Shown one piece after another: positions 1-6,788 of a stretch of 6,788 bases of DNA. The stretch spans positions 1 through 6,788 of the forward strand of contig JADFSZ010000096.1 in NCBI GenBank assembly GCA_022560555.1, given 5' to 3'. The notes below the pieces were generated by a model, which saw only the letters and a program-made list of their open reading frames with translations, was not told the DNA's origin and did not search any database. The stretch comes from PVC group bacterium. Its GTDB lineage: Bacteria > GCA-001730085 > JADFSZ01. The translations under genes were made by a program, and so were the position numbers. Each line of letters begins with the position of its first letter. Position 1 is the stretch's first letter.

Positions 1-1
1 T

Positions 2-517
2 TTAGCGAATAATCGTAATGTTGTTTTGTTCCCTGAGAAGATTCAAGGGAAATATCTTGCCCTGCATCGACCTTTTGGTCATGGGTGGAGCGAAGGTGAC
101 ATTTGGATGGCGACCTCTCCTGATCTTCTTCATTGGGGCGAGTACAAAATTTTGATGGGGCCGCGTCCCGGATTTTGGGATCATTCTAAGATTGGAGCCG
201 GAGCTCCTCCGTTCAAAACAGAGCACGGATGGATTTTGATTTATCATGGAGTTGATGATTCTGAAAAATATGCCTTAGGGATTGTTGTGCTGGATTTGGA
301 GAACCCCTTGAAAATATTAGGACGATCACAGGAGGCTCTTTTGCAGCCGGAAACATTGTATGAGCGAGAAGGTTTTTTTGGAAATGTTGTATTTACCTGC
401 GGAGCGATCCAAAGAGATCATAATCAAATCGATATCTACTATGGTGCATCGGATGAGGCTCTTTGCCTCGCTTCATTGAGTGAGAAGGAGTTGATGGAAC
501 ATGTCAAAAAGCATTAA
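2..517 (+). CDS. GH130 family (DUF377) beta-mannoside phosphorylase/glycosidase-like protein, 5'-truncated by the window edge (C-terminal ~171 aa present)
   Basis: The frame is open from nt 2 (LANNRNVVLFPEKIQGKY...), so the ATG at 26 is internal and the gene starts upstream of the window. Family hallmarks are present: NRN-x2-LFPEK, HRP, GFWD, GxGxPP, GWILIYHGV, LDLENP, VVFTCGA, YYGASD. It is clearly paralogous to the two complete GH130 ORFs downstream. Stop TAA is at 515-517. Confidence 0.85.
   Translation, partial: LANNRNVVLFPEKIQGKYLALHRPFGHGWSEGDIWMATSPDLLHWGEYKILMGPRPGFWDHSKIGAGAPPFKTEHGWILIYHGVDDSEKYALGIVVLDLENPLKILGRSQEALLQPETLYEREGFFGNVVFTCGAIQRDHNQIDIYYGASDEALCLASLSEKELMEHVKKH
485..490 (+). 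promoter_or_regulatory. Shine-Dalgarno (AAGGAG) for the GT4-fusion gene, embedded in the 3' end of the upstream GH130 gene
   Basis: AAGGAG lies 10 nt upstream of ATG 501. The ATG lies 17 nt inside the upstream CDS, a geometry typical of translational coupling. Confidence 0.6.
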
Positions 518-2756
518 ACGGTCTATTGCCTTTCTGGGTAATTATCTTCCCCGAAAATGCGGCATCGCGACATTTACAAAAGATATTTGTGAAGCGGTTT
601 CTAGAGAGGTAAGCAAAAACTGCAATGTGTATGCCATTGCTATGACCAATCGCTCTGAAGGTTATGATTATCCCGAAAGGGTTAAATTTGATATTCGGGA
701 TCAAATCGTTTCTGATTATGAGAAAGCCGCCGACCTTGTTAATACCAGCAAGGTAGATGTTGTGTGTGTTCAACATGAATATGGAATTTATGGAGGAGAA
801 TGGGGGGAATACCTTCATGTGTTTCTCCGGCAGGTGAAAGTTCCGGTTGTAACGACCCTTCATACGGTTCTTGAAAAATCTATGGACGAAACCCATGAAA
901 AAGTTTTTCGTGAACTGATAGCAAGAAGCGATCGCTTGATTGTTCTGGCCGAAAAAGCCATCCCGATGTTGAAGAATCGAGGGGTTCCTGAAGAAAAATT
1001 AATTTATATCCCGCACGGGATTCCGGATTTCTCACGATCTGATTCAAAAAAACTTAAGGAAAATCTGGATTTATCCGGCAAGACCATGATTTTGACTTTT
1101 GGACTTTTGGGGCCGGATAAAGGTATTGAATATATGATTGAAGCGATGGGGGCTCTTGTAGAGCGTTATCCCGATCTTGTTTATATTGTTTTAGGCGCGA
1201 CTCATCCGGAAATTATTAAACACTATGGAGAGGAATACCGTCACAAACTCATGCGGCAAATTGAGAGTCTGGGTTTGCAAAAACATGTTTTTTTGTATGA
1301 TCGTTTTGTTGAGTTAGAAGAGCTTTGCGAATATATTCATGCGGCTGATTTTTATGTTATCCCTTATTTGAATCGCGAACAAATAGTTTCCGGAACCTTG
1401 TGTTATGCTTTGGGAGCCGGAAAGGCGGTGATCTCGACGCCCAGTCTGTGCGCGGAAGAACTTCTTCGGGATCAAAGAGGTGTTTTAGTTCCTTTTAAAA
1501 ACGCGAACGCGTTGGCAAAAGCGCTAGAAAATTTATTTCAAGATGCAGATGCTTGCGAGGTGATGCGGGATAAGTCTTATAAATTCGGGATGAAAATGAG
1601 ATGGCCGAATGTGGCAAAAGAATATCTTGACGTATTCCGTTCGGTTCAAAAAGAACGCCCATTGATTGTTTCGGAACGAAAAAAGGCAAAAGAGCCGATC
1701 CTCTTATCCTCTAAATTTCCGTTTCCAAAATTAGATCATATCATGACATTGACAGACGATTTTGCGATGTTGCAGCATGCTCGTTATACCATTCCGAACT
1801 ATGATCATGGATATTGTGTTGATGATAACGCGCGGGCCATTGTTGTCGCGACAAAATTTTACCGGATTTTTAATGAAGGATCTGCCCTGTCTCTTCTGAA
1901 TAAATATCTTGCGTTTGTTTTTTATGCTCAAAGAGAGGATGGCTTGTTTCGGAATTTTTATGATATGAGAAAGCAGCCCCTTGATGAAATCGGATCCGAT
2001 GATTGCCAGGGCCGGTGTCTTTGGGGATTAGGGTATGTTATGGCTTATGGGCCTGCTCGTTTTGGAATGGCAGCAAAATCTTGTTTTAAAAAAGTGCTGC
2101 CTCATACCCAAAAATTTGAAATAAGAGGAATCGCTTTTTCAATTCTAGGACTTTATTATTACTTGCTCCGCTTTCCGGATGATGAGCAGATTAAGTCTCT
2201 CATGACGATCTTAGCCGAGAGCCTAGTCCGATCTTATCAAGAAACTTCCGATGAAAAATGGTTTTGGTTTGAAAATTCGTTAACCTATGCCAATGGCTTG
2301 TTGCCCGTGGCTTTGTGGGTCGCTTCTTACTCGCTTAAGCAAAAGAAATATCAAGACGTGGCGCAAAAGGCCACGGTCTTTTTGCGTCAGCAGTCCGTAA
2401 GAAACGGACATCTTTCGTTGATTGGGTGTAAAGGATGGCATTCTAAAGAGAACCAGAAAAAAGCGCAGTATGATCAACAGGCCATTGACGCGCTATGGAT
2501 GGTGGAACTCAGTAAATTTGCCTATCGATATACAAATGATGAGAATTATTTGAGTTTAATGAAAACATCCGTTGATTGGTTTCTCGGAGAAAATGACCTT
2601 TCGGTTGCGCTTTATGATCGGGTGACAGGAGGTTGTTATGACGGTTTAACATCTAGAGGAGCGAACCTTAACCAAGGGGCGGAGAGCACCCTCAGTGCTG
2701 TGATCGCACTTTTATCCATTGCGGAAATGGCTTATCAGCAGTCAGAGATGAAATGA
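501..2756 (+). CDS. Two-domain protein: N-terminal GT4 (Glycos_transf_1, GT-B fold) glycosyltransferase fused to an uncharacterised helix-rich C-terminal domain (possible alpha/alpha-barrel, six-hairpin-like)
   Basis: 751-aa ORF with an SD site. The N-terminus IAFLGNYLPRKCGIATFTKDI matches the 'PPRxCGIATFT' start I recognise from a GT4 subfamily. A GT-B C-lobe follows (ILTFGLLGPDKGIEY...YIVLGATHP...ADFYVIPYLNREQIVSGTLCYALGAGKAVISTP...AEELL). Residues ~409-745 form a second domain with no GT motifs. Confidence 0.85.
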   Translation: MSKSIKRSIAFLGNYLPRKCGIATFTKDICEAVSREVSKNCNVYAIAMTNRSEGYDYPERVKFDIRDQIVSDYEKAADLVNTSKVDVVCVQHEYGIYGGEWGEYLHVFLRQVKVPVVTTLHTVLEKSMDETHEKVFRELIARSDRLIVLAEKAIPMLKNRGVPEEKLIYIPHGIPDFSRSDSKKLKENLDLSGKTMILTFGLLGPDKGIEYMIEAMGALVERYPDLVYIVLGATHPEIIKHYGEEYRHKLMRQIESLGLQKHVFLYDRFVELEELCEYIHAADFYVIPYLNREQIVSGTLCYALGAGKAVISTPSLCAEELLRDQRGVLVPFKNANALAKALENLFQDADACEVMRDKSYKFGMKMRWPNVAKEYLDVFRSVQKERPLIVSERKKAKEPILLSSKFPFPKLDHIMTLTDDFAMLQHARYTIPNYDHGYCVDDNARAIVVATKFYRIFNEGSALSLLNKYLAFVFYAQREDGLFRNFYDMRKQPLDEIGSDDCQGRCLWGLGYVMAYGPARFGMAAKSCFKKVLPHTQKFEIRGIAFSILGLYYYLLRFPDDEQIKSLMTILAESLVRSYQETSDEKWFWFENSLTYANGLLPVALWVASYSLKQKKYQDVAQKATVFLRQQSVRNGHLSLIGCKGWHSKENQKKAQYDQQAIDALWMVELSKFAYRYTNDENYLSLMKTSVDWFLGENDLSVALYDRVTGGCYDGLTSRGANLNQGAESTLSAVIALLSIAEMAYQQSEMK
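519..1649 (+). other. GT4 glycosyltransferase domain (approx. residues 7-383 of the fusion protein)
   Basis: Boundaries were judged by eye from the motif content listed for the parent CDS. The domain ends at ...WPNVAKEYLDVFRSV, a typical GT-B C-terminal helix. Confidence 0.7.
1725..2735 (+). other. Unassigned C-terminal domain (approx. residues 409-745), preceded by a Lys-rich linker (nt ~1650-1724, ERPLIVSERKKAKEPILLSSKFPFPK)
   Basis: Repeated helix-like segments rich in aromatic residues, with conserved-looking acidic or polar motifs: GYCVDDNARA, WFWFENSLTYANG, YDQQAIDALW, NLNQGAESTLSAV. The fold assignment is inference only. Confidence 0.45.
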
Positions 2757-2759
2757 AAT

Positions 2760-2765
2760 AAGGAG
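2760..2765 (+). promoter_or_regulatory. Shine-Dalgarno (AAGGAG) for GH130 paralog 2
   Basis: AAGGAG lies 3 nt before ATG 2769 and 6 nt before ATG 2772. The spacing favours 2772 slightly, so the start is ambiguous by one codon. Confidence 0.6.
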
Positions 2766-2768
2766 TTC

Positions 2769-3719
2769 ATGATGCGTCAGACTTCAGGGCGGGATCTTGT
2801 TCATCGATTTGAGAAAAACCCTATTATTGAATTGGAGGATCTTAGTTTCAGCTGCCTTAATATTATGAATGCAGGGGCCGTTAAGGCCGGAAATCAATAC
2901 ATTCTTCTTGTCCGCATAGAAACAATGAGAGGTCACTCAGTTATTTTCGTCGCAAGAAGTACGAATGGCATGAATTTTGTTTTGGACAAAGAACCCATTC
3001 TGGGCCCTGCGACGGAAGGTGAGTTTCAAAAATATGAAGGACATGGTGTGGCGGACCCGCGCATTACCTATTTGGACGGAGTTTATTATATCGTCTATAC
3101 AGCTTTGTCTCGGAATGGAAAACGCTTGGTTTTAGCAAAGACAAGTGATTTTCAGACGATCGAAAAACTTGGCCTCATTTCAGAGCCCGATAATCATAAC
3201 GGGGCTTTATTCTCGAGAAAAATTAATGATTGTTATGTAAGGCTTGAGAGACCGTTCGAGGGAGGCAATATTTGGATTTCTTATTCTAAAGATTTATATT
3301 ATTGGGGCCGGTCTTCTGTTGTGATGTCTCCGCGGGGACCCGGGTTTTGGGATGAGAGTCGTGTGGGGTGTGCTGTTCCTCCGCTTGAAGTGGAAGAAGG
3401 GTGGCTTCTCATTTATTATGGGGTCAAAGAAACGTCGGGAGGTCCTCTCTTTCGTCTGGGAGTAGCCATGTTAGACAAAGAGGATCCTTCCCGGTTGATT
3501 GGACGGGCCTCTTTCCCGATTCTCTCTCCCCGGGAATCTTACGAACGGGTTGGAGATCATGGGAATATGGTATTTTCCTGCGGCGCGATTGTCGAGAATA
3601 AGGAAATCATGCTCTACTATGGAGGTGCTGATATGGGGATTAACTTGGGGACCGTGTTGCTGTCAGAGTTAGTGGAGGAATGTTTAGGTGAGGAGGGGCG
3701 TGAGAATGGTTCGTTTTAG
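2769..3719 (+). CDS. GH130 family (DUF377) beta-mannoside phosphorylase/glycosidase-like protein, paralog 2 (divergent at several family-conserved positions)
   Basis: 316-aa ORF with a strong SD and full-length GH130-like layout: FEKNPII...GHSVIF...GVADPRITYLDGVYYIVYTA...LFSRKI...RLERP...NIWISYSKDL..WG...GFWD...VPP...GWLLIYYGV...FRLGVAMLD...PILSP...YE..G...NMVFSCGAI...YYGGAD. No signal peptide is evident. Confidence 0.88.
   Translation: MMRQTSGRDLVHRFEKNPIIELEDLSFSCLNIMNAGAVKAGNQYILLVRIETMRGHSVIFVARSTNGMNFVLDKEPILGPATEGEFQKYEGHGVADPRITYLDGVYYIVYTALSRNGKRLVLAKTSDFQTIEKLGLISEPDNHNGALFSRKINDCYVRLERPFEGGNIWISYSKDLYYWGRSSVVMSPRGPGFWDESRVGCAVPPLEVEEGWLLIYYGVKETSGGPLFRLGVAMLDKEDPSRLIGRASFPILSPRESYERVGDHGNMVFSCGAIVENKEIMLYYGGADMGINLGTVLLSELVEECLGEEGRENGSF
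3691..3696 (+). promoter_or_regulatory. Shine-Dalgarno (AGGAGG) for GH130 paralog 3, inside the 3' end of paralog 2
   Basis: AGGAGG lies 9 nt upstream of ATG 3706. A second SD-like GGAGGA at 3673-3678 lies 9 nt upstream of the alternative GTG at 3688, so the start is not fully resolved. Confidence 0.5.
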
Positions 3720-4644
3720 AAGAGACATTCTGAAAAGGTGGGAGAGAAACCCTATTATTAAATTAGAGGATATTCCTTTTCGCTGTAATACCGTATTCAA
3801 TGGGGCTGCTACAAAATTTAACGATCAATATATTTTTCTGCTCCGGGTTGAAGATCTGAAAGGTCATTCCGTCATTTTAAAAGCTCATAGTGAAGATGGA
3901 TATCATTTTACTGTCGGGAAGGAACCCTGTATGTATCCTTGCGATATCGAGCCGTACAAAACCTACGAGGAACGAGGCGTTGAGGACCCCCGGATCATTT
4001 ATCTCGAGGGCATTTATTACATTATGTATACAGCCTATTCCCGGTACGGAGCTCGTATTGCTCTGGCTAAGACAGAAGATTTTGAGCATTACGAGAGAAT
4101 CGCGATAGTCTCTGAGCCGGGCAACAAAGATGGGCTGCTTTTTCCAAGAAAAATCAATGGCCGGTATGTCCGGCTCGATCGTCCGATTTCCGGTGGGATT
4201 GGCAATATTTGGATCTCTTATTCTAAAGATTTGATTTTTTGGGGACATTCAAAACTTGTTGCTGAGATTCGCCGTGATTTTTGGGACTCCTACCGTATCG
4301 GAGGTTCGGTTCCTCCTATTGAAACCGAGCAAGGTTGGCTTGAGATTTATCACGGTGTTAAAATGACCAATTCCGGACCCATTTACCGCTTGGGGGTATT
4401 TCTTTTGGACTTAGAAAATCCGGAAAAAATGCTTGGGCAATCCGATATCCCGATTCTTTCTCCGCGGGAACCCTACGAGCGTATCGGGGATGTGAATAAT
4501 GTTGTTTTTTCTTGCGGAGCGATTGTCGAGGAGAATGGTGATATCAAGGTTTACTATGGCGCTGCCGATACCTGTATTTGTGTGGCGGAAGGGACCGTGA
4601 AAGAGCTGGTTGAATTTTGTTTGGAGGAAAAGAGTCTTTTTTGA
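3706..4644 (+). CDS. GH130 family (DUF377) beta-mannoside phosphorylase/glycosidase-like protein, paralog 3
   Basis: The ORF track starts at GTG 3688. I prefer ATG 3706 (MVRFRRDILKRWERNPII...) because it has an AGGAGG SD and its N-terminal length matches paralog 2 (MMRQTSGRDLVHRFEKNPII...). Motifs include GVEDPRIIYLEGIYYIMYTA, LFPRKI, RLDRP, NIWISYSKDL, GWLEIYHGV, YRLGVFLLDLENP, VVFSCGAI and YYGAAD. Roughly half the residues match paralog 2 by eye. The start overlaps the paralog 2 stop by 14 nt, or by 32 nt if GTG is used. Confidence 0.88.
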   Translation: MVRFRRDILKRWERNPIIKLEDIPFRCNTVFNGAATKFNDQYIFLLRVEDLKGHSVILKAHSEDGYHFTVGKEPCMYPCDIEPYKTYEERGVEDPRIIYLEGIYYIMYTAYSRYGARIALAKTEDFEHYERIAIVSEPGNKDGLLFPRKINGRYVRLDRPISGGIGNIWISYSKDLIFWGHSKLVAEIRRDFWDSYRIGGSVPPIETEQGWLEIYHGVKMTNSGPIYRLGVFLLDLENPEKMLGQSDIPILSPREPYERIGDVNNVVFSCGAIVEENGDIKVYYGAADTCICVAEGTVKELVEFCLEEKSLF

Positions 4645-4655
4645 GCTTTTAAGTA

Positions 4656-4664
4656 TGATATAAT
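4656..4664 (+). promoter_or_regulatory. Candidate sigma70-type extended -10 promoter element (TGaTATAAT) for the radical SAM / glutaredoxin-like unit
   Basis: This is a perfect TGnTATAAT match in the only sizeable intergenic region (4645-4753). There is no good -35 at 17-nt spacing: CTTTTT sits at 4636-4641, and TTGAGC at 4641-4646 is only 12 nt away. Extended -10 promoters can work without a -35. It would give a leader of roughly 80 nt. Confidence 0.35.
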
Positions 4665-4743
4665 CGTAGTAACTGGCTAATAGAAGAGACGCGAAAAAGC
4701 CAAGAAGAAGATAAAAACGTTTATTTGGAAATTTATAACAAAC

Positions 4744-4748
4744 AAGGA
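4744..4748 (+). promoter_or_regulatory. Shine-Dalgarno (AAGGA) for the radical SAM gene
   Basis: AAGGA overlaps the first ATG (4748) and lies 5 nt upstream of the second ATG (4754), which favours 4754 as the start. Confidence 0.5.
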
Positions 4749-4753
4749 TGGAA

Positions 4754-6316
4754 ATGAAACGCCTGAAAATATGTCTGATTAATCCAAAATTTGAGCCTTC
4801 CTATTGGGGCTTCGAATATGCATTGCCGCTTTATCCGGGGAAAAGGACATGCACGATGATCACGGGAGCCTTGCCCTATCTCGCGGGTCTTACTCCGGAT
4901 CACGAGGTTTATCTTCTTGATGAAAACGTGGAGGAGATTGACTTCGCGTCTCTCAAGGACTTTGATATCGTCGGTGTAACCGGCATGGTAGTCCAAAAGA
5001 AGCGCATGATGGAAATTCTGCGAAAGGTGCGTGAAATGAAGATCTTTACCATCGTTGGCGGTGCCTACGCTTCGGTTGATGAGAAACACTTCGACGGTTA
5101 CTGTGACGTCCTCTTTTCTGGTGAGGCTGATGAGACCTGGCCGGAGTTTATTGAATGTTTCGCATCAGGAAAAGAGTACAAGAAGTTTTACGAACAAGAA
5201 AATCGTACAGATATGACGACGGTTCCGAGTCCCCGATTTGATCTGCTTAAGGTTGACCGCTACGCTTCAGGAGCTATTCAGTTCTCTCGTGGTTGTCCCT
5301 TTCAGTGTGAATTCTGTGACATCATTATCACCTTTGGCCGCCGTCCAAGAACCAAGAAACCGGAGCAGCTTATTGACGAGCTCGATGACATGCGCAAGGC
5401 AGGCTTCTTCTCCTGCTTTATCGTTGATGATAATTTTATTGGAAACAAAAAGGCTGCGAAAGAGCTGCTTCGGCTCATGATTCCTTGGCAAAAGAAACAT
5501 AATTATCCGTTACGGATGTCGACCGAGGCAAGTATCAACTTGGCCGACGATGCTGAATTGCTTGATTTGATGTATCATGCGAATTTTCGGGCCGTCTTTA
5601 TCGGCATTGAGACGCCAAAGATGGAATCGCTAAAGGAGACAAAGAAATTTCAGAATATAGCAGGTGACTCCATGGAAGCTAAGTTAGATCGCATCTATAA
5701 AGCCGGTATAAATGTAAGGGCCGGATTTATTGTCGGATTTGATAATGATGACAAGAATATTTTTGAAGAGCAATACCAGTTTATTCAGAACAATGGAATT
5801 CTTATGGCCATGGTTGGTACTCTCATTGCGATACCGAAAACCCCGCTCTATAAACGCATGGAGAAGGAAGGGCGCCTCAGACTCGATGATCCAAATTGTA
5901 ATATCGCACCCAAACAAATGACACCGGACGAACTCCAGCAGGGTTACTGGGAACTCCTCAAGCGGCTCTACACACCGCAAGCCTTTATGGACAGGTATTT
6001 TAAAACTTTTCGATTTCCGGAATTCCGGCATAAACGGGCGGAAATATGTGACAAAGCCAACGAAGGAAAAATGATTCCGACTCTTGGATTTGGCTTGGTT
6101 TTGTTGTGGAATCTGTTTTGGACGCTGTTCAAAGACCGTAGTTTAAGAAAGGTGGGGGATGTTTACATTCGTAATTTTTTCAAGAACAGTCTGCGTTATC
6201 GACGAGACGTTATAGGCTTTGCGCAATTCATGAATGCATGTGTCACTCATTGGCATTTCTACAAATTTACACGAGAAGGCACAGAAGGCAGACTGCGTCT
6301 TTTCAATTCAGGCTAA
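4754..6316 (+). CDS. B12-binding domain-containing radical SAM protein (class B rSAM architecture) with DUF4070-type C-terminal region; substrate unknown
   Basis: The N-terminal Rossmann-like B12-binding-type region reads KICLINPKF...EVYLLDENVEE...DIVGVTGMV...FTIVGGAYAS. The radical SAM cluster motif is FSRGCPFQCEFCD (Cys codons at 5294, 5306, 5315), followed by core strands FIVDDNF, FIGIETP and GFIVGFDND. The C-terminal ~120 aa resemble the DUF4070 tail found in HpnP-like and many orphan B12-rSAMs. The alternative start at ATG 4748 adds only 2 aa. Confidence 0.85.
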   Translation: MKRLKICLINPKFEPSYWGFEYALPLYPGKRTCTMITGALPYLAGLTPDHEVYLLDENVEEIDFASLKDFDIVGVTGMVVQKKRMMEILRKVREMKIFTIVGGAYASVDEKHFDGYCDVLFSGEADETWPEFIECFASGKEYKKFYEQENRTDMTTVPSPRFDLLKVDRYASGAIQFSRGCPFQCEFCDIIITFGRRPRTKKPEQLIDELDDMRKAGFFSCFIVDDNFIGNKKAAKELLRLMIPWQKKHNYPLRMSTEASINLADDAELLDLMYHANFRAVFIGIETPKMESLKETKKFQNIAGDSMEAKLDRIYKAGINVRAGFIVGFDNDDKNIFEEQYQFIQNNGILMAMVGTLIAIPKTPLYKRMEKEGRLRLDDPNCNIAPKQMTPDELQQGYWELLKRLYTPQAFMDRYFKTFRFPEFRHKRAEICDKANEGKMIPTLGFGLVLLWNLFWTLFKDRSLRKVGDVYIRNFFKNSLRYRRDVIGFAQFMNACVTHWHFYKFTREGTEGRLRLFNSG

Positions 6317-6330
6317 CTTCACATTTAACT

Positions 6331-6337
6331 AAGGGGA
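6331..6337 (+). promoter_or_regulatory. Shine-Dalgarno-like AAGGGGA for the glutaredoxin-like gene
   Basis: The purine-rich SD ends 3-4 nt before ATG 6341. There is only a 24-nt gap after the rSAM stop, consistent with co-transcription. Confidence 0.5.
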
Positions 6338-6340
6338 ATT

Positions 6341-6697
6341 ATGAAATATATTCGAAAAATATTAGGCGCCCTTGTTGTATTCTTTGATGCCATAACGCGT
6401 CCAAAGCCGATCGAGAGATCCGTTGATGCTCAAAGCGATGTGGACCGCCGATCAAAGAATTTATCTTTGTATCAGTTTCATGCCTGTCCGTTTTGTGTCA
6501 AAGTGCGCCGGGCGCTTCACAAGTTGAATGTCAACATTGAACTAAGGGACGCCAAAACCGACATAATCGGAAATGAATTATTGAAAGAAGGCGGCAAACG
6601 TAAAGTGCCGTGCCTGCGTATCGAGCAAGACGGTGGGGTTCAATGGATGTATGATTCAAACAGCATCATTCAGTATCTTCAAACGGCTTTTAATTAA
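6341..6697 (+). CDS. Glutaredoxin-family thiol-disulfide oxidoreductase-like protein (CPFC active site) with a ~40-aa N-terminal extension containing a hydrophobic segment
   Basis: The thioredoxin-fold signature is LSLYQFHACPFCVKVRRAL (CPFC at nt 6485-6496), GGKRKVPCL (cis-Pro VP motif) and WMYDSNSIIQYL. The N-terminal KILGALVVFFDAITRPKP extension is conserved in a bacterial glutaredoxin-like subfamily as I recall it. Confidence 0.8.
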   Translation: MKYIRKILGALVVFFDAITRPKPIERSVDAQSDVDRRSKNLSLYQFHACPFCVKVRRALHKLNVNIELRDAKTDIIGNELLKEGGKRKVPCLRIEQDGGVQWMYDSNSIIQYLQTAFN

Positions 6698-6788
6698 TAA
6701 GTCCGAACTTGGCTCAGCCAGCGACTCCTTATCTTTTCCTCAAAATCAAAGGCTTCCAGCTGTGAATAAACCGCTCGTTTGCATCGCA

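Follow-up and report, generated by a model that had tools for sequence, protein, structure and literature searches.

A candidate cytoplasmic module for making and phosphorolytically recycling a mannoside, built on a GT4–GH130 gene pair, in a PVC group bacterium

Introduction

Among described gene clusters, the closest precedent for the locus considered here is Teth514_1785-1796 of Thermoanaerobacter sp. X-514, which encodes two cytoplasmic β-1,2-mannoside phosphorylases of glycoside hydrolase family 130 (GH130) with differing specificities (Chiku et al. 2014, PMC4264767). That cluster is unidirectional and also contains a family 4 glycosyltransferase (GT4) annotated as a GDP-mannose-dependent α-mannosyltransferase, a mannose 1-phosphate (Man-1-P) guanylyltransferase, a five-gene ABC importer, and a GH5 enzyme; it has been read as a system for the salvage of external β-1,2-mannan (PMC4264767). 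Here we analyze a stretch of 6,788 nucleotides (nt), contig JADFSZ010000096.1 of a PVC group bacterium (assembly GCA_022560555.1; hereafter the window), in which a two-domain GT4 gene (GT4-long) lies among three GH130 genes (GH130a, GH130b, and GH130c). On balance, positions 2-4644 of this window are probably an operon-like module that, within the cytoplasm, builds a mannose-containing oligosaccharide or glycoside and recycles it by phosphorolysis. The ancestral core of the module is GT4-long together with GH130c; GH130a and GH130b are additions in this lineage.

Like the Thermoanaerobacter cluster, the present cassette combines tandem cytoplasmic GH130s with a GT4, and some cassettes of the same kind in other genomes have ManC beside them. 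Unlike that cluster, it lacks an importer, and in its GT4 an (α/α)6 barrel domain is present and the EX7E motif is degenerate; the Teth514 GT4 is not described as having a barrel. GH130b and GH130c also belong to a lineage different from that of Teth514_1788/1789, their best sequence matches in the PDB being TM1225 and UhgbMP. A first-pass annotation of this DNA had named no characterized example of the gene combination; Teth514_1786-1789 does provide a precedent for tandem GH130s with a GT4 (PMC4264767), albeit one linked to an importer and a GH5.

A second point of comparison is the mannogen cycle of Leishmania. In this cycle tandem GT108 paralogs, some of them synthetic and others phosphorolytic, act on a cytosolic β-1,2-mannan, with energy kept as Man-1-P (Sernee et al. 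2019, as summarized in PMC10913872 and PMC12814180). These paralogs share the GH130-type five-bladed β-propeller fold and offer the closest functional analogy to the mechanism proposed below; the system differs in that GT108 is not PF04041, the host is eukaryotic, there is no GT4 or barrel partner, and the product is known.

Other known systems share parts of the design. The cyclic β-1,2-glucan synthase Cgs joins a GT84 domain, an (α/α)6 cyclase, and a GH94 phosphorylase, and phosphorolysis sets the chain length of its product. The likeness is one of analogy only: the combination of a glycosyltransferase, an (α/α)6 barrel, and an inverting phosphorylase around a β-1,2 glycan is the same, but all three families differ, and Cgs is a membrane protein that handles glucose with an inverting glycosyltransferase. 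Fusions also exist between GH130 and GT81, the family of glucosyl-3-phosphoglycerate synthase. CAZy holds a few such GH130-GT81 proteins (PMC7660257), and they hint that some GH130s work on internal glycosides, not on foraged glycans. In the breakdown of mannan, cellobiose 2-epimerase is described as working alongside a GH130 mannosylglucose phosphorylase (Senoura et al. 2011, as cited in PMC7660257); this pairing resembles the present one in setting an (α/α)6 barrel fold beside a GH130 partner, and differs in that the barrels have no sequence relation and the partner GH130c is of the β-1,2 type, not the β-1,4 (Y/R) type. A link to the mannosylglucosylglycerate pathway was also considered, and none was found; MggA is an ordinary GT4 of ~398 amino acids (aa) (PMC3736172).

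Results

Organization of the cassette

The features of the cassette, all on the forward (+) strand, are as follows.

2..517, +: GH130a, the C-terminal 171 aa of a ~348-aa protein; the open reading frame (ORF) is open at the 5' edge of the window
482..490, +: Shine–Dalgarno-like GAGAAGGAG, preceding GT4-long and within GH130a; read from the sequence
501..2756, +: GT4-long, 751 aa, two domains
501..1670, +: N-terminal GT-B domain of GT4-long, ~residues 1-390; from Pfam, AlphaFold2 (AF2), and Foldseek
1683..2756, +: C-terminal (α/α)6 barrel of GT4-long, YPO2471 family; from AF2, Foldseek, and profile search
2760..2765, +: Shine–Dalgarno AAGGAG, preceding GH130b; read from the sequence
2769..3719, +: GH130b, 316 aa
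3690..3698, +: Shine–Dalgarno-like GAGGAGGGG, preceding GH130c and within GH130b; read from the sequence
3706..4644, +: GH130c, 312 aa

GH130a and GT4-long overlap by 17 nt (ATG at 501, TAA stop at 515-517), GT4-long and GH130b are spaced by 12 nt (2757-2768), and GH130b and GH130c overlap by 14 nt (ATG at 3706, TAG stop at 3717-3719). Purine-rich Shine–Dalgarno-like stretches lie 6-10 nt ahead of the starts of GT4-long, GH130b, and GH130c; alternative starts are possible for GH130c at GTG 3700 or GTG 3688. The maximum 19-residue Kyte–Doolittle mean is at most 1.32 in all four proteins and their N-termini are polar, which argues that none contains a transmembrane helix or signal peptide; the cassette proteins are accordingly predicted to be cytoplasmic. 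Scans with Pfam and NCBIfam identified no transporter or regulator among the window genes. Each of these properties had been noted in the first-pass annotation—junctions of −17, +12, and −14 nt with a ribosome-binding site for each start, the lack of signal peptides and transmembrane helices in the three complete proteins, and the lack of a transporter or regulator—and each is confirmed here, from the ORFs and sequence, from hydropathy in all four proteins including the partial GH130a, and from the family scans, respectively.

Linkage of GT4-long and GH130 genes across genomes

Each GTDB species was represented by a single genome in a pattern scan that yielded at least 590 confirmed GT4-long loci, the best 80 of which were kept; these 80 span more than 20 phyla. 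A same-strand GH130 gene lies within 4 kb of GT4-long at 56 of the 80, and at 41 of the 53 loci whose flanks each extend 2.5 kb or more; a GH130c-type gene adjoins GT4-long in at least 33 genome loci. The same association is recovered from the other partner. In a search of metagenome contigs with a GH130c-type profile, 35 GH130c-type loci had flanks of 3 kb or more on each side; GT4-long was present at 30 of them, in 29 cases on the same strand.

The complete order GH130a/GT4-long/GH130b/GH130c also occurs in Ca. Aadella gelida (an Omnitrophota metagenome-assembled genome, MAG; loci L083/L084) and in a metagenome contig (L088). Position-wise orthologs in this recurring four-gene cassette are 53%, 61%, 71%, and 74% identical, and the genes flanking it are completely different. 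In a further locus (L085) GT4-long is 76% identical, the parts are rearranged, and there is an extra short GT4. The first-pass annotation had proposed conservation of the GH130/GT4-long/GH130/GH130 synteny across phyla as its first check: linkage of GT4-long with GH130 is indeed kept in more than 20 phyla and in both search directions, and the exact order recurs in the Aadella MAG and L088.

Clustering of ORFs from the 80 genome loci, together with Pfam, defines a small set of recurrent parts: GT4-long, a short GH130 (~313-330 aa), a long GH130 (~485-490 aa), a short GT4 (~340 aa, 13 loci), and a second GT4-like protein (~408 aa, 8 loci). The commonest architectures are GT4-long with the short GH130 (25 loci) and GT4-long with the long GH130 (8 loci); larger sets exist, for example GT4-long, short GT4, short GH130, and long GH130 together. 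Cultured organisms with the GT4-long and GH130 genes side by side include Geothrix fermentans DSM 14018 (L054) and Rhodopirellula sp. SWK7 (L066), and the pair is also carried by Leptospira biflexa (L013), there known so far from a MAG only.

Several observations on individual loci may be recorded here. The long GH130 has a ~250-aa N-terminal extension with no Pfam match, followed by the GH130 part (REDKG..RHD); it is found at L017:14271-15749, L054:12283-13737, and ~25 other loci, in Verrucomicrobiota, Acidobacteriota, Desulfobacterota, and other groups. At L085:6229-6582, a DUF559/MTES_1575 (Vsr-like endonuclease-type) gene lies between two GH130s, with an integrase (rve) upstream. The 80 loci include two from archaeal-labeled MAGs, a member of the Methanosarcinales (L061) and "archaeon ARS1414" (L078), each with a GH130 on its contig; in L061 this gene is accompanied by two further GT4 genes, and in L078 it lies ~2.9 kb downstream. 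These archaeal-labeled loci could reflect horizontal transfer or binning error.

The GT-B domain of GT4-long

Pfam matches cover residues 34-361 of GT4-long (PF00534, 70.9 bits against a cut-off of 26.4; PF13439, 32.0 against 28.5; and PF13692), and most residues of the domain have predicted local distance difference test (pLDDT) values of at least 85 in the AF2 model. Foldseek places the domain close to MshA, PimB', HepE, SPS, BshA, PimA, and TreT (E 1e-16 to 1e-13 for MshA, PimB', HepE, SPS, and PimA), with PglA also among the closest GT4 structures. As judged from sequence and model, the N-terminal domain is a GT4 with the retaining-type GT-B fold. Its EX7E motif is degenerate: the position of PimA E282 is occupied by an invariant tyrosine (Tyr302, in 73 of 73 family members), and that of PimA E274 corresponds to position 293, which is Glu in 50 of 73. 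Lys207 (PimA K202, phosphate-binding) and His121 (PimA H118, on the acceptor side) are invariant in the family. NCBIfam returned weak matches of GT4-long to exopolysaccharide (EPS) and PEP-CTERM glycosyltransferases.

The family is large. All 8,000 scored candidates fall at E ≤1e-10, and the 120 listed cover at least 95% of the query; relatives occur in Omnitrophota, Planctomycetota, Armatimonadota, Chloroflexota, Desulfobacterota, Rhodothermus, and other groups. No solved structure in the Foldseek comparison combines the GT4 and barrel domains. The relative orientation of the two domains is not interpreted, since the AF2 model of full-length GT4-long reaches a predicted template modeling score (pTM) of only 0.62.

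The (α/α)6 barrel of GT4-long

The last ~360 residues of GT4-long have no Pfam match. Modeled with AF2 from a 73-sequence alignment, this region forms an (α/α)6 barrel (pLDDT 96.6, pTM 0.94) whose top Foldseek match is YPO2471 of Y. pestis (PDB 7tem; E 2.5e-15, TM-score 0.80). A search of the whole PDB with a profile of the barrel (hmmsearch) finds 7tem only (E 1.1e-17), over stretches at profile positions 49-141 and 206-360, and the two share the motifs DDxARA, FxNF, RALWAL, WFxxN, TGxxxDG, and NxNxGAEST. YPO2471 is a stand-alone protein annotated as a "putative exported protein," whereas the present barrel is predicted to be cytoplasmic and is fused to a GT4; because YPO2471 is itself uncharacterized, no function is transferred from it to the barrel. 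Literature searches retrieved no paper on the GT4-barrel/GH130 module, the barrel family, or YPO2471, an absence that is not proof.

The next Foldseek matches belong to the AGE superfamily (cellobiose and glucose 2-epimerases, mannose isomerase, and YihS; E 1e-9 to 1e-7, TM-score ~0.7), followed by GH9 enzymes. Assignment of the barrel as an AGE-type epimerase was considered and rejected: the barrel profile finds no AGE protein up to E 10, and there is no match to the Pfam GlcNAc 2-epimerase family. As the profile recovers only 7tem, the AGE likeness is one of fold only. AGE enzymes use a catalytic His/His/Glu set; the pocket residues of the barrel are mostly Asp, Glu, Asn, Gln, and Trp. Across 43 sequences from many phyla, 32 barrel residues are invariant, most of them at the starts of alternate helices, where the conserved motifs (DDNAR, GSxD..GR, W.W.E..Y.N, DQQ, N.NQGAES) cluster. 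Such a distribution is expected, given the alignment and model, if one end of the barrel holds a pocket for catalysis or specific binding.

The barrel family comprises 4,019 representative clusters at 50% identity, and many of its members are stand-alone proteins of ~350-360 aa. Two of these stand-alone barrels (P0128 and P0139) gave informative loci, the contigs of a third (P0124) being too short; at each of the three informative loci (L170-L172), a ~415-aa GT4 gene stands immediately ahead of the barrel gene. This arrangement suggests that GT4 and barrel form a functional unit whether fused or split. The barrel probably matters as much to the mechanism as the GT4 domain does.

The GH130 paralogs

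All three GH130 genes match PF04041 (curated cut-off 26 bits), with scores of 150.1 bits for GH130a (E 9e-44), 174.9 for GH130b (3e-51), and 201.1 for GH130c (3e-59). Published residue rules for the family, in UhgbMP numbering, assign D104 as the proton donor and R168 and H231 to phosphate binding, and use positions 103/150 to predict linkage: Y/R for β-1,4, E/K for β-1,2, and E/R for β-1,3 (PMC7660257 Table 2). A phosphorylase is expected to have D104 and R168/H231, no second carboxylate base, and no signal peptide (PMC7660257).

GH130c carries the signature R59, E103, D104, K150, R168, H231, D304 (REDKDRHD), with the Asp, Arg, and His expected of a phosphorylase and no signal peptide; given its E/K pair, it is predicted to be a cytoplasmic β-1,2-type mannoside phosphorylase. 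The same signature is found in 33 short partner GH130s and, with KD changed to KG, in 22 long ones; in total, the proton-donor Asp, the Arg and His of the phosphate site, and the E/K pair are retained in at least 55 partner GH130s.

The key residues of GH130a are R(150), N, R(168), H(231), and D(304). The phosphate-binding Arg and His are thus present within the window, the Glu-Asp pair is supplied by a near-identical contig described below (L082), and no signal peptide is found. A full-length ortholog at L085:6638-7687, 81% identical, matches Lin0857 (5b0p; E 5e-92) and Uhgb_MS (E 3e-82) over its full length; the alignment of GH130a with Lin0857 and Uhgb_MS (9eqq) includes the GH130_4 N-terminal insertion, with Arg in GH130a in place of the Lys of both enzymes at the R150-equivalent position. 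GH130a is therefore a putative Lin0857/Uhgb_MS-like (GH130_4-like) mannoside phosphorylase with the E/R pair of the β-1,3 rule.

GH130b departs from both patterns. Its signature, RADHNRYD, places Ala ahead of the catalytic Asp, His at the K/R150 position, and Tyr at the position of His231; the catalytic Asp and Arg168 are kept, and the A/H pair fits neither the β-1,2 nor the β-1,3 rule. In alignment, GH130b reads ADPR/NHN/YYG where Teth514_1788, 7fip, and Lin0857 read EDPR/NKD/YHG. The Aadella ortholog, 71% identical, has the signature RADHNRYN, and this retention of the pattern indicates a conserved property, not decay. GH130b thus appears to be an atypical paralog with a changed +1 subsite; a His-to-Tyr variant has been reported in GH130 meta-node UC3 (PMC7660257).

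The first-pass annotation had counted three GH130 enzymes. Three PF04041 genes are indeed present; they belong to three different lineages, however, and are not a set of similar enzymes, and GH130a is possibly disrupted. The evidence for disruption comes from L082 (JADFRM010000044.1), a contig of another "PVC group bacterium" MAG (GCA_022561295.1) that is near-identical to the window, with 98.8% identity over window positions 1-4690 and 96.3% over 4694-6728. At L082:39-41, upstream of the first base of the window, GH130a contains an in-frame TAG (RIVRT*EKIYL) where the 81%-identical ortholog has Lys (RIVKTKEKIYL), and the L082 gene is called as 237 aa, compared with the ~348 aa expected. The TAG is either real pseudogenization or a contig-end error. 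Given this TAG and the partial copy in the window, a third intact GH130 in the source organism is not proven.

Reported activities of GH130 phosphorylases extend to synthesis. All tested β-1,2 GH130 phosphorylases make β-1,2-mannosides from Man-1-P and show weak GDP-mannose transferase activity (PMC4264767, PMC12814180). Some β-1,3 GH130 phosphorylases also weakly transfer from GDP-mannose, and the enzymes with this activity include the Lin0857/Uhgb_MS subfamily (PMC12814180); the physiological relevance of this transfer is doubted by its discoverers (PMC12814180).

Mannose-activation genes and flanking genes

Genes of mannose activation occur in or near several cassettes. In L005, L070, L110, and L111, the short GT4 carries a fused PF01050 mannose-6-phosphate-isomerase (PMI) cupin; a bifunctional ManC adjoins the GT4-long/GH130 pair in L163 and L071; ManC and phosphomannomutase (PMM) genes directly follow GT4-long in L024; and a PMM gene directly precedes the split GT4 and barrel pair in L171. 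These independent indications suggest that the sugar is mannose and that the Man-1-P/GDP-mannose pool is involved.

The genes around the cassettes are not conserved. At 78 loci, the two genes closest to the cassette on either side were compared with Pfam (243 non-cassette proteins), and the most frequent flanking family accounts for 5 of the 243 proteins. The 25 most recurrent flank families listed per half include none of the ABC, MFS, solute-binding protein, TonB, SusD, Wzx/Wzy, or polysaccharide-export type, and neither the window nor these listed families contain the components of a foraging-type locus (SusC/D, a solute-binding protein or importer, an extracellular glycoside hydrolase, and a regulator). 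In Aadella the flanks carry an ABC-2 exporter-type pair and an amino-acid permease, which are not conserved elsewhere. As no flanking family occurs in more than 5 genes, and no transport or export family is among those listed, the module appears self-contained. The first-pass annotation had held that its hypothesis would fail if such cassettes were consistently embedded in utilization loci with importers or exporters; the scan of 243 flanking genes does not reveal such embedding.

Discussion

A proposed build-and-phosphorolyze cycle

In the mechanism that we propose, the GT4 domain would use a donor, most probably GDP-mannose, to form an α-linked primer or cap. The GH130 paralogs would attach β-mannosyl units, drawing on α-Man-1-P through reverse phosphorolysis or, more weakly, on GDP-mannose; they would also remove such units with phosphate, so that Man-1-P could return to the GDP-mannose pool without ATP cost. 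The barrel domain may bind or trim the same glycan. We infer what the sugar product is, which donor the GT4 uses, what the barrel does, and that synthesis and phosphorolysis converge on one molecule. With regard to the internal-glycan interpretation of the first-pass annotation, the linkage, cytoplasmic location, independence from transporters, and involvement of mannose (ManC, PMM, and the GT4-PMI fusions) all favor it, and the build-and-phosphorolyze cycle itself is plausible.

Several points weigh against this interpretation. A retaining GT4 cannot make the β-linkages that GH130s cleave, and building and phosphorolysis may therefore concern different bonds; the sugar handled by the GT4 could be other than mannose, and its use of GDP-mannose is uncertain given that the EX7E donor-binding motif is degenerate. 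By sequence, GH130c is nearest overall to the GH130_2 enzymes TM1225 and UhgbMP, and the residue rules for linkage specificity are correlative. All three GH130s score below the cut-offs of the β-1,2-mannobiose phosphorylase equivalogs NF050092 and NF052550 (550 and 450 bits): GH130c, the best of the three, reaches 265.6 and 221.7 bits, GH130b 218 and 191, and GH130a 216 bits over 166 aa for NF050092. The association also has exceptions. About a quarter of GT4-long loci have no nearby GH130. Brocadiaceae and Pirellulales loci without a GH130 have another GT4-like or an EEP-family gene, and the GH130b-c pair occurs with no GT4-long nearby in L102, L103, and L105. GT4-long of Rhodothermus profundi has no adjoining GH130, for which reason this cultured organism is not a simple model for the pair.

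In four of the loci without a GH130 (L007, L008, L023, and L051; Pirellulales and Sedimentisphaerales), a ~256-aa PF03372 gene lies downstream of GT4-long, directly following it in L007 and L008 (e.g., L008:12465-13235). Its product could be a sugar- or inositol-phosphate phosphatase partner.

A broader form of the proposed cycle, which we offer tentatively and as a possibility short of probable, is that the module is a bacterial and archaeal counterpart of the mannogen rheostat across more than 20 phyla: by analogy, a GT4-primed cytoplasmic mannoside would be turned over through Man-1-P by GH130s and sized or trimmed by the barrel. Under this extension, the non-canonical GT4, lacking EX7E, may use a sugar-1-phosphate and not an NDP-sugar, the glycan would be a reserve or stress solute, and the barrel would represent a new (α/α)6 glycoside-active family.

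Alternative explanations

The best-surviving alternative, which we nonetheless consider unlikely, is salvage: the GH130s would phosphorolyze imported β-mannosides, such as fungal or bacterial β-1,2/β-1,3 mannosides or N-glycan fragments, to Man-1-P, which would be converted to GDP-mannose that GT4-long spends on an unrelated glycoconjugate. Degradation would in that case feed the supply of activated sugar, with no cycle on a single internal glycan. The Teth514_1788/1789 pair, with its Man-1-P guanylyltransferase and GT4 α-mannosyltransferase, has been interpreted in this way (PMC4264767); GH130 phosphorylases of known biology are catabolic (PMC7660257), and ManC and PMM stand beside some of the present cassettes. 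However, the Thermoanaerobacter cluster has an ABC importer and a GH5, and no importer is found in the window, in the Aadella cassette, or among the recurrent flank families listed. GH130c is also tied far more tightly to GT4-long (30 of 35 loci) than to ManC (a handful of loci), and many hosts belong to oligotrophic or sediment lineages that would seem to have no obvious source of β-1,2-mannan.

Quite unlikely as well is an anabolic role in the envelope or in glycoconjugates, in which the product of the GT4s would be an α-mannosyl glycolipid, lipoglycan, or protein glycan made on the inner membrane face, GT4-long being a peripheral-membrane protein like PimA/PimB and the GH130s acting as β-mannosyltransferases with GDP-mannose or Man-1-P. 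The closest GT4 structures include PimA, PimB', HepE, and PglA, which have lipid-linked or envelope acceptors, but the equally close MshA, BshA, SPS, and TreT use small soluble acceptors. Cassettes contain up to three GT4 genes (L005), and the weak NCBIfam matches to EPS and PEP-CTERM glycosyltransferases point the same way; against this, the recurrent flank families listed include no flippase, polymerase, polyprenyl-phosphate transferase, or export family. β-1,2 and some β-1,3 GH130 phosphorylases do transfer from GDP-mannose, but the activity is weak and its relevance is doubted by those who discovered it (PMC12814180), and retention of the phosphate-binding Arg and His in nearly all partner GH130s argues for use of phosphate or Man-1-P.

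Lineage-specific packing of unrelated carbohydrate genes into a small contig is extremely improbable and effectively refuted: the contig is only ~7 kb long and comes from a MAG, and overlaps of 17 and 14 nt are not the classic 1 or 4 nt, but the linkage is bidirectional and cross-phylum, the order is identical in Aadella even where GT4-long is only 61% identical, GT4 and barrel occur both fused and as adjacent separate genes, and the cassette is conserved where its flanking genes are not.

Neighboring genes and other features of the window

Downstream of the cassette, and separated from GH130c by a 103-nt spacer, the window contains two further genes.

4748..6316, +: B12-binding radical-SAM protein with DUF4070, 522 aa; from Pfam and NCBIfam
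6341..6697, +: glutaredoxin-like protein with a hydrophobic N-terminus, the last gene of the window

These two genes (4748-6697) were considered as cassette members and rejected, as they are missing from the syntenic Aadella, L085, L086, and L088 loci. Radical-SAM homologs lie near GT4-long in 3 of the 80 genome loci (L021, L026, and L048), 34-43% identical, on the same strand and within ~4 kb upstream, and DUF4070 occurs twice among the 243 flanking genes; the association with GT4-long may be weak or may be chance.

A scan of the 103-nt spacer for promoters and terminators was uninformative, and Rfam gave no match anywhere in the window. L082 carries ~34 extra nt in this spacer (window 4691-4693 compared with L082:4986-5022), and the drop in identity between the two contigs begins exactly where the cassette ends. 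Direct repeats in the window reflect the paralogy of the GH130 genes and nothing more. GC skew is positive in each 500-nt step across 1-6788, and the cumulative skew climbs monotonically, a pattern consistent with the placement of all six genes on one (perhaps leading) strand.

Significance

The catalytic families of the module are known with the exception of the barrel, whose family is uncharacterized, and cycles of synthesis and phosphorolysis are a known design. The roles and substrates of β-1,2/β-1,3-type GH130 phosphorylases outside gut foragers are nevertheless an acknowledged gap: no β-1,2-mannan source is known in Thermoanaerobacter (PMC4264767), meta-nodes UC2, UC5, UC8, and UC9, which consist mostly or wholly of CAZy-database sequences, are uncharacterized (PMC7660257), and the relevance of GH130 GDP-mannose transferase activity is undecided (PMC12814180). 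A two-gene core found in more than 20 phyla, sometimes together with mannose-activation genes, provides a genetic handle on these questions. It also introduces new biochemical objects, namely a two-domain GT4 family with a non-canonical donor motif and the barrel family itself.

If the proposed cycle is correct, a cytoplasmic mannoside pool would constitute an unrecognized carbon reserve or stress solute in many uncultured lineages, and the module would supply enzymes for the nucleotide-free synthesis of mannosides. Should its more tentative extension to a counterpart of mannogen hold, environmental GH130 clades would gain a natural substrate, and the barrel would merit a new CAZy-type family, of which YPO2471 (7tem) would be the only solved member.

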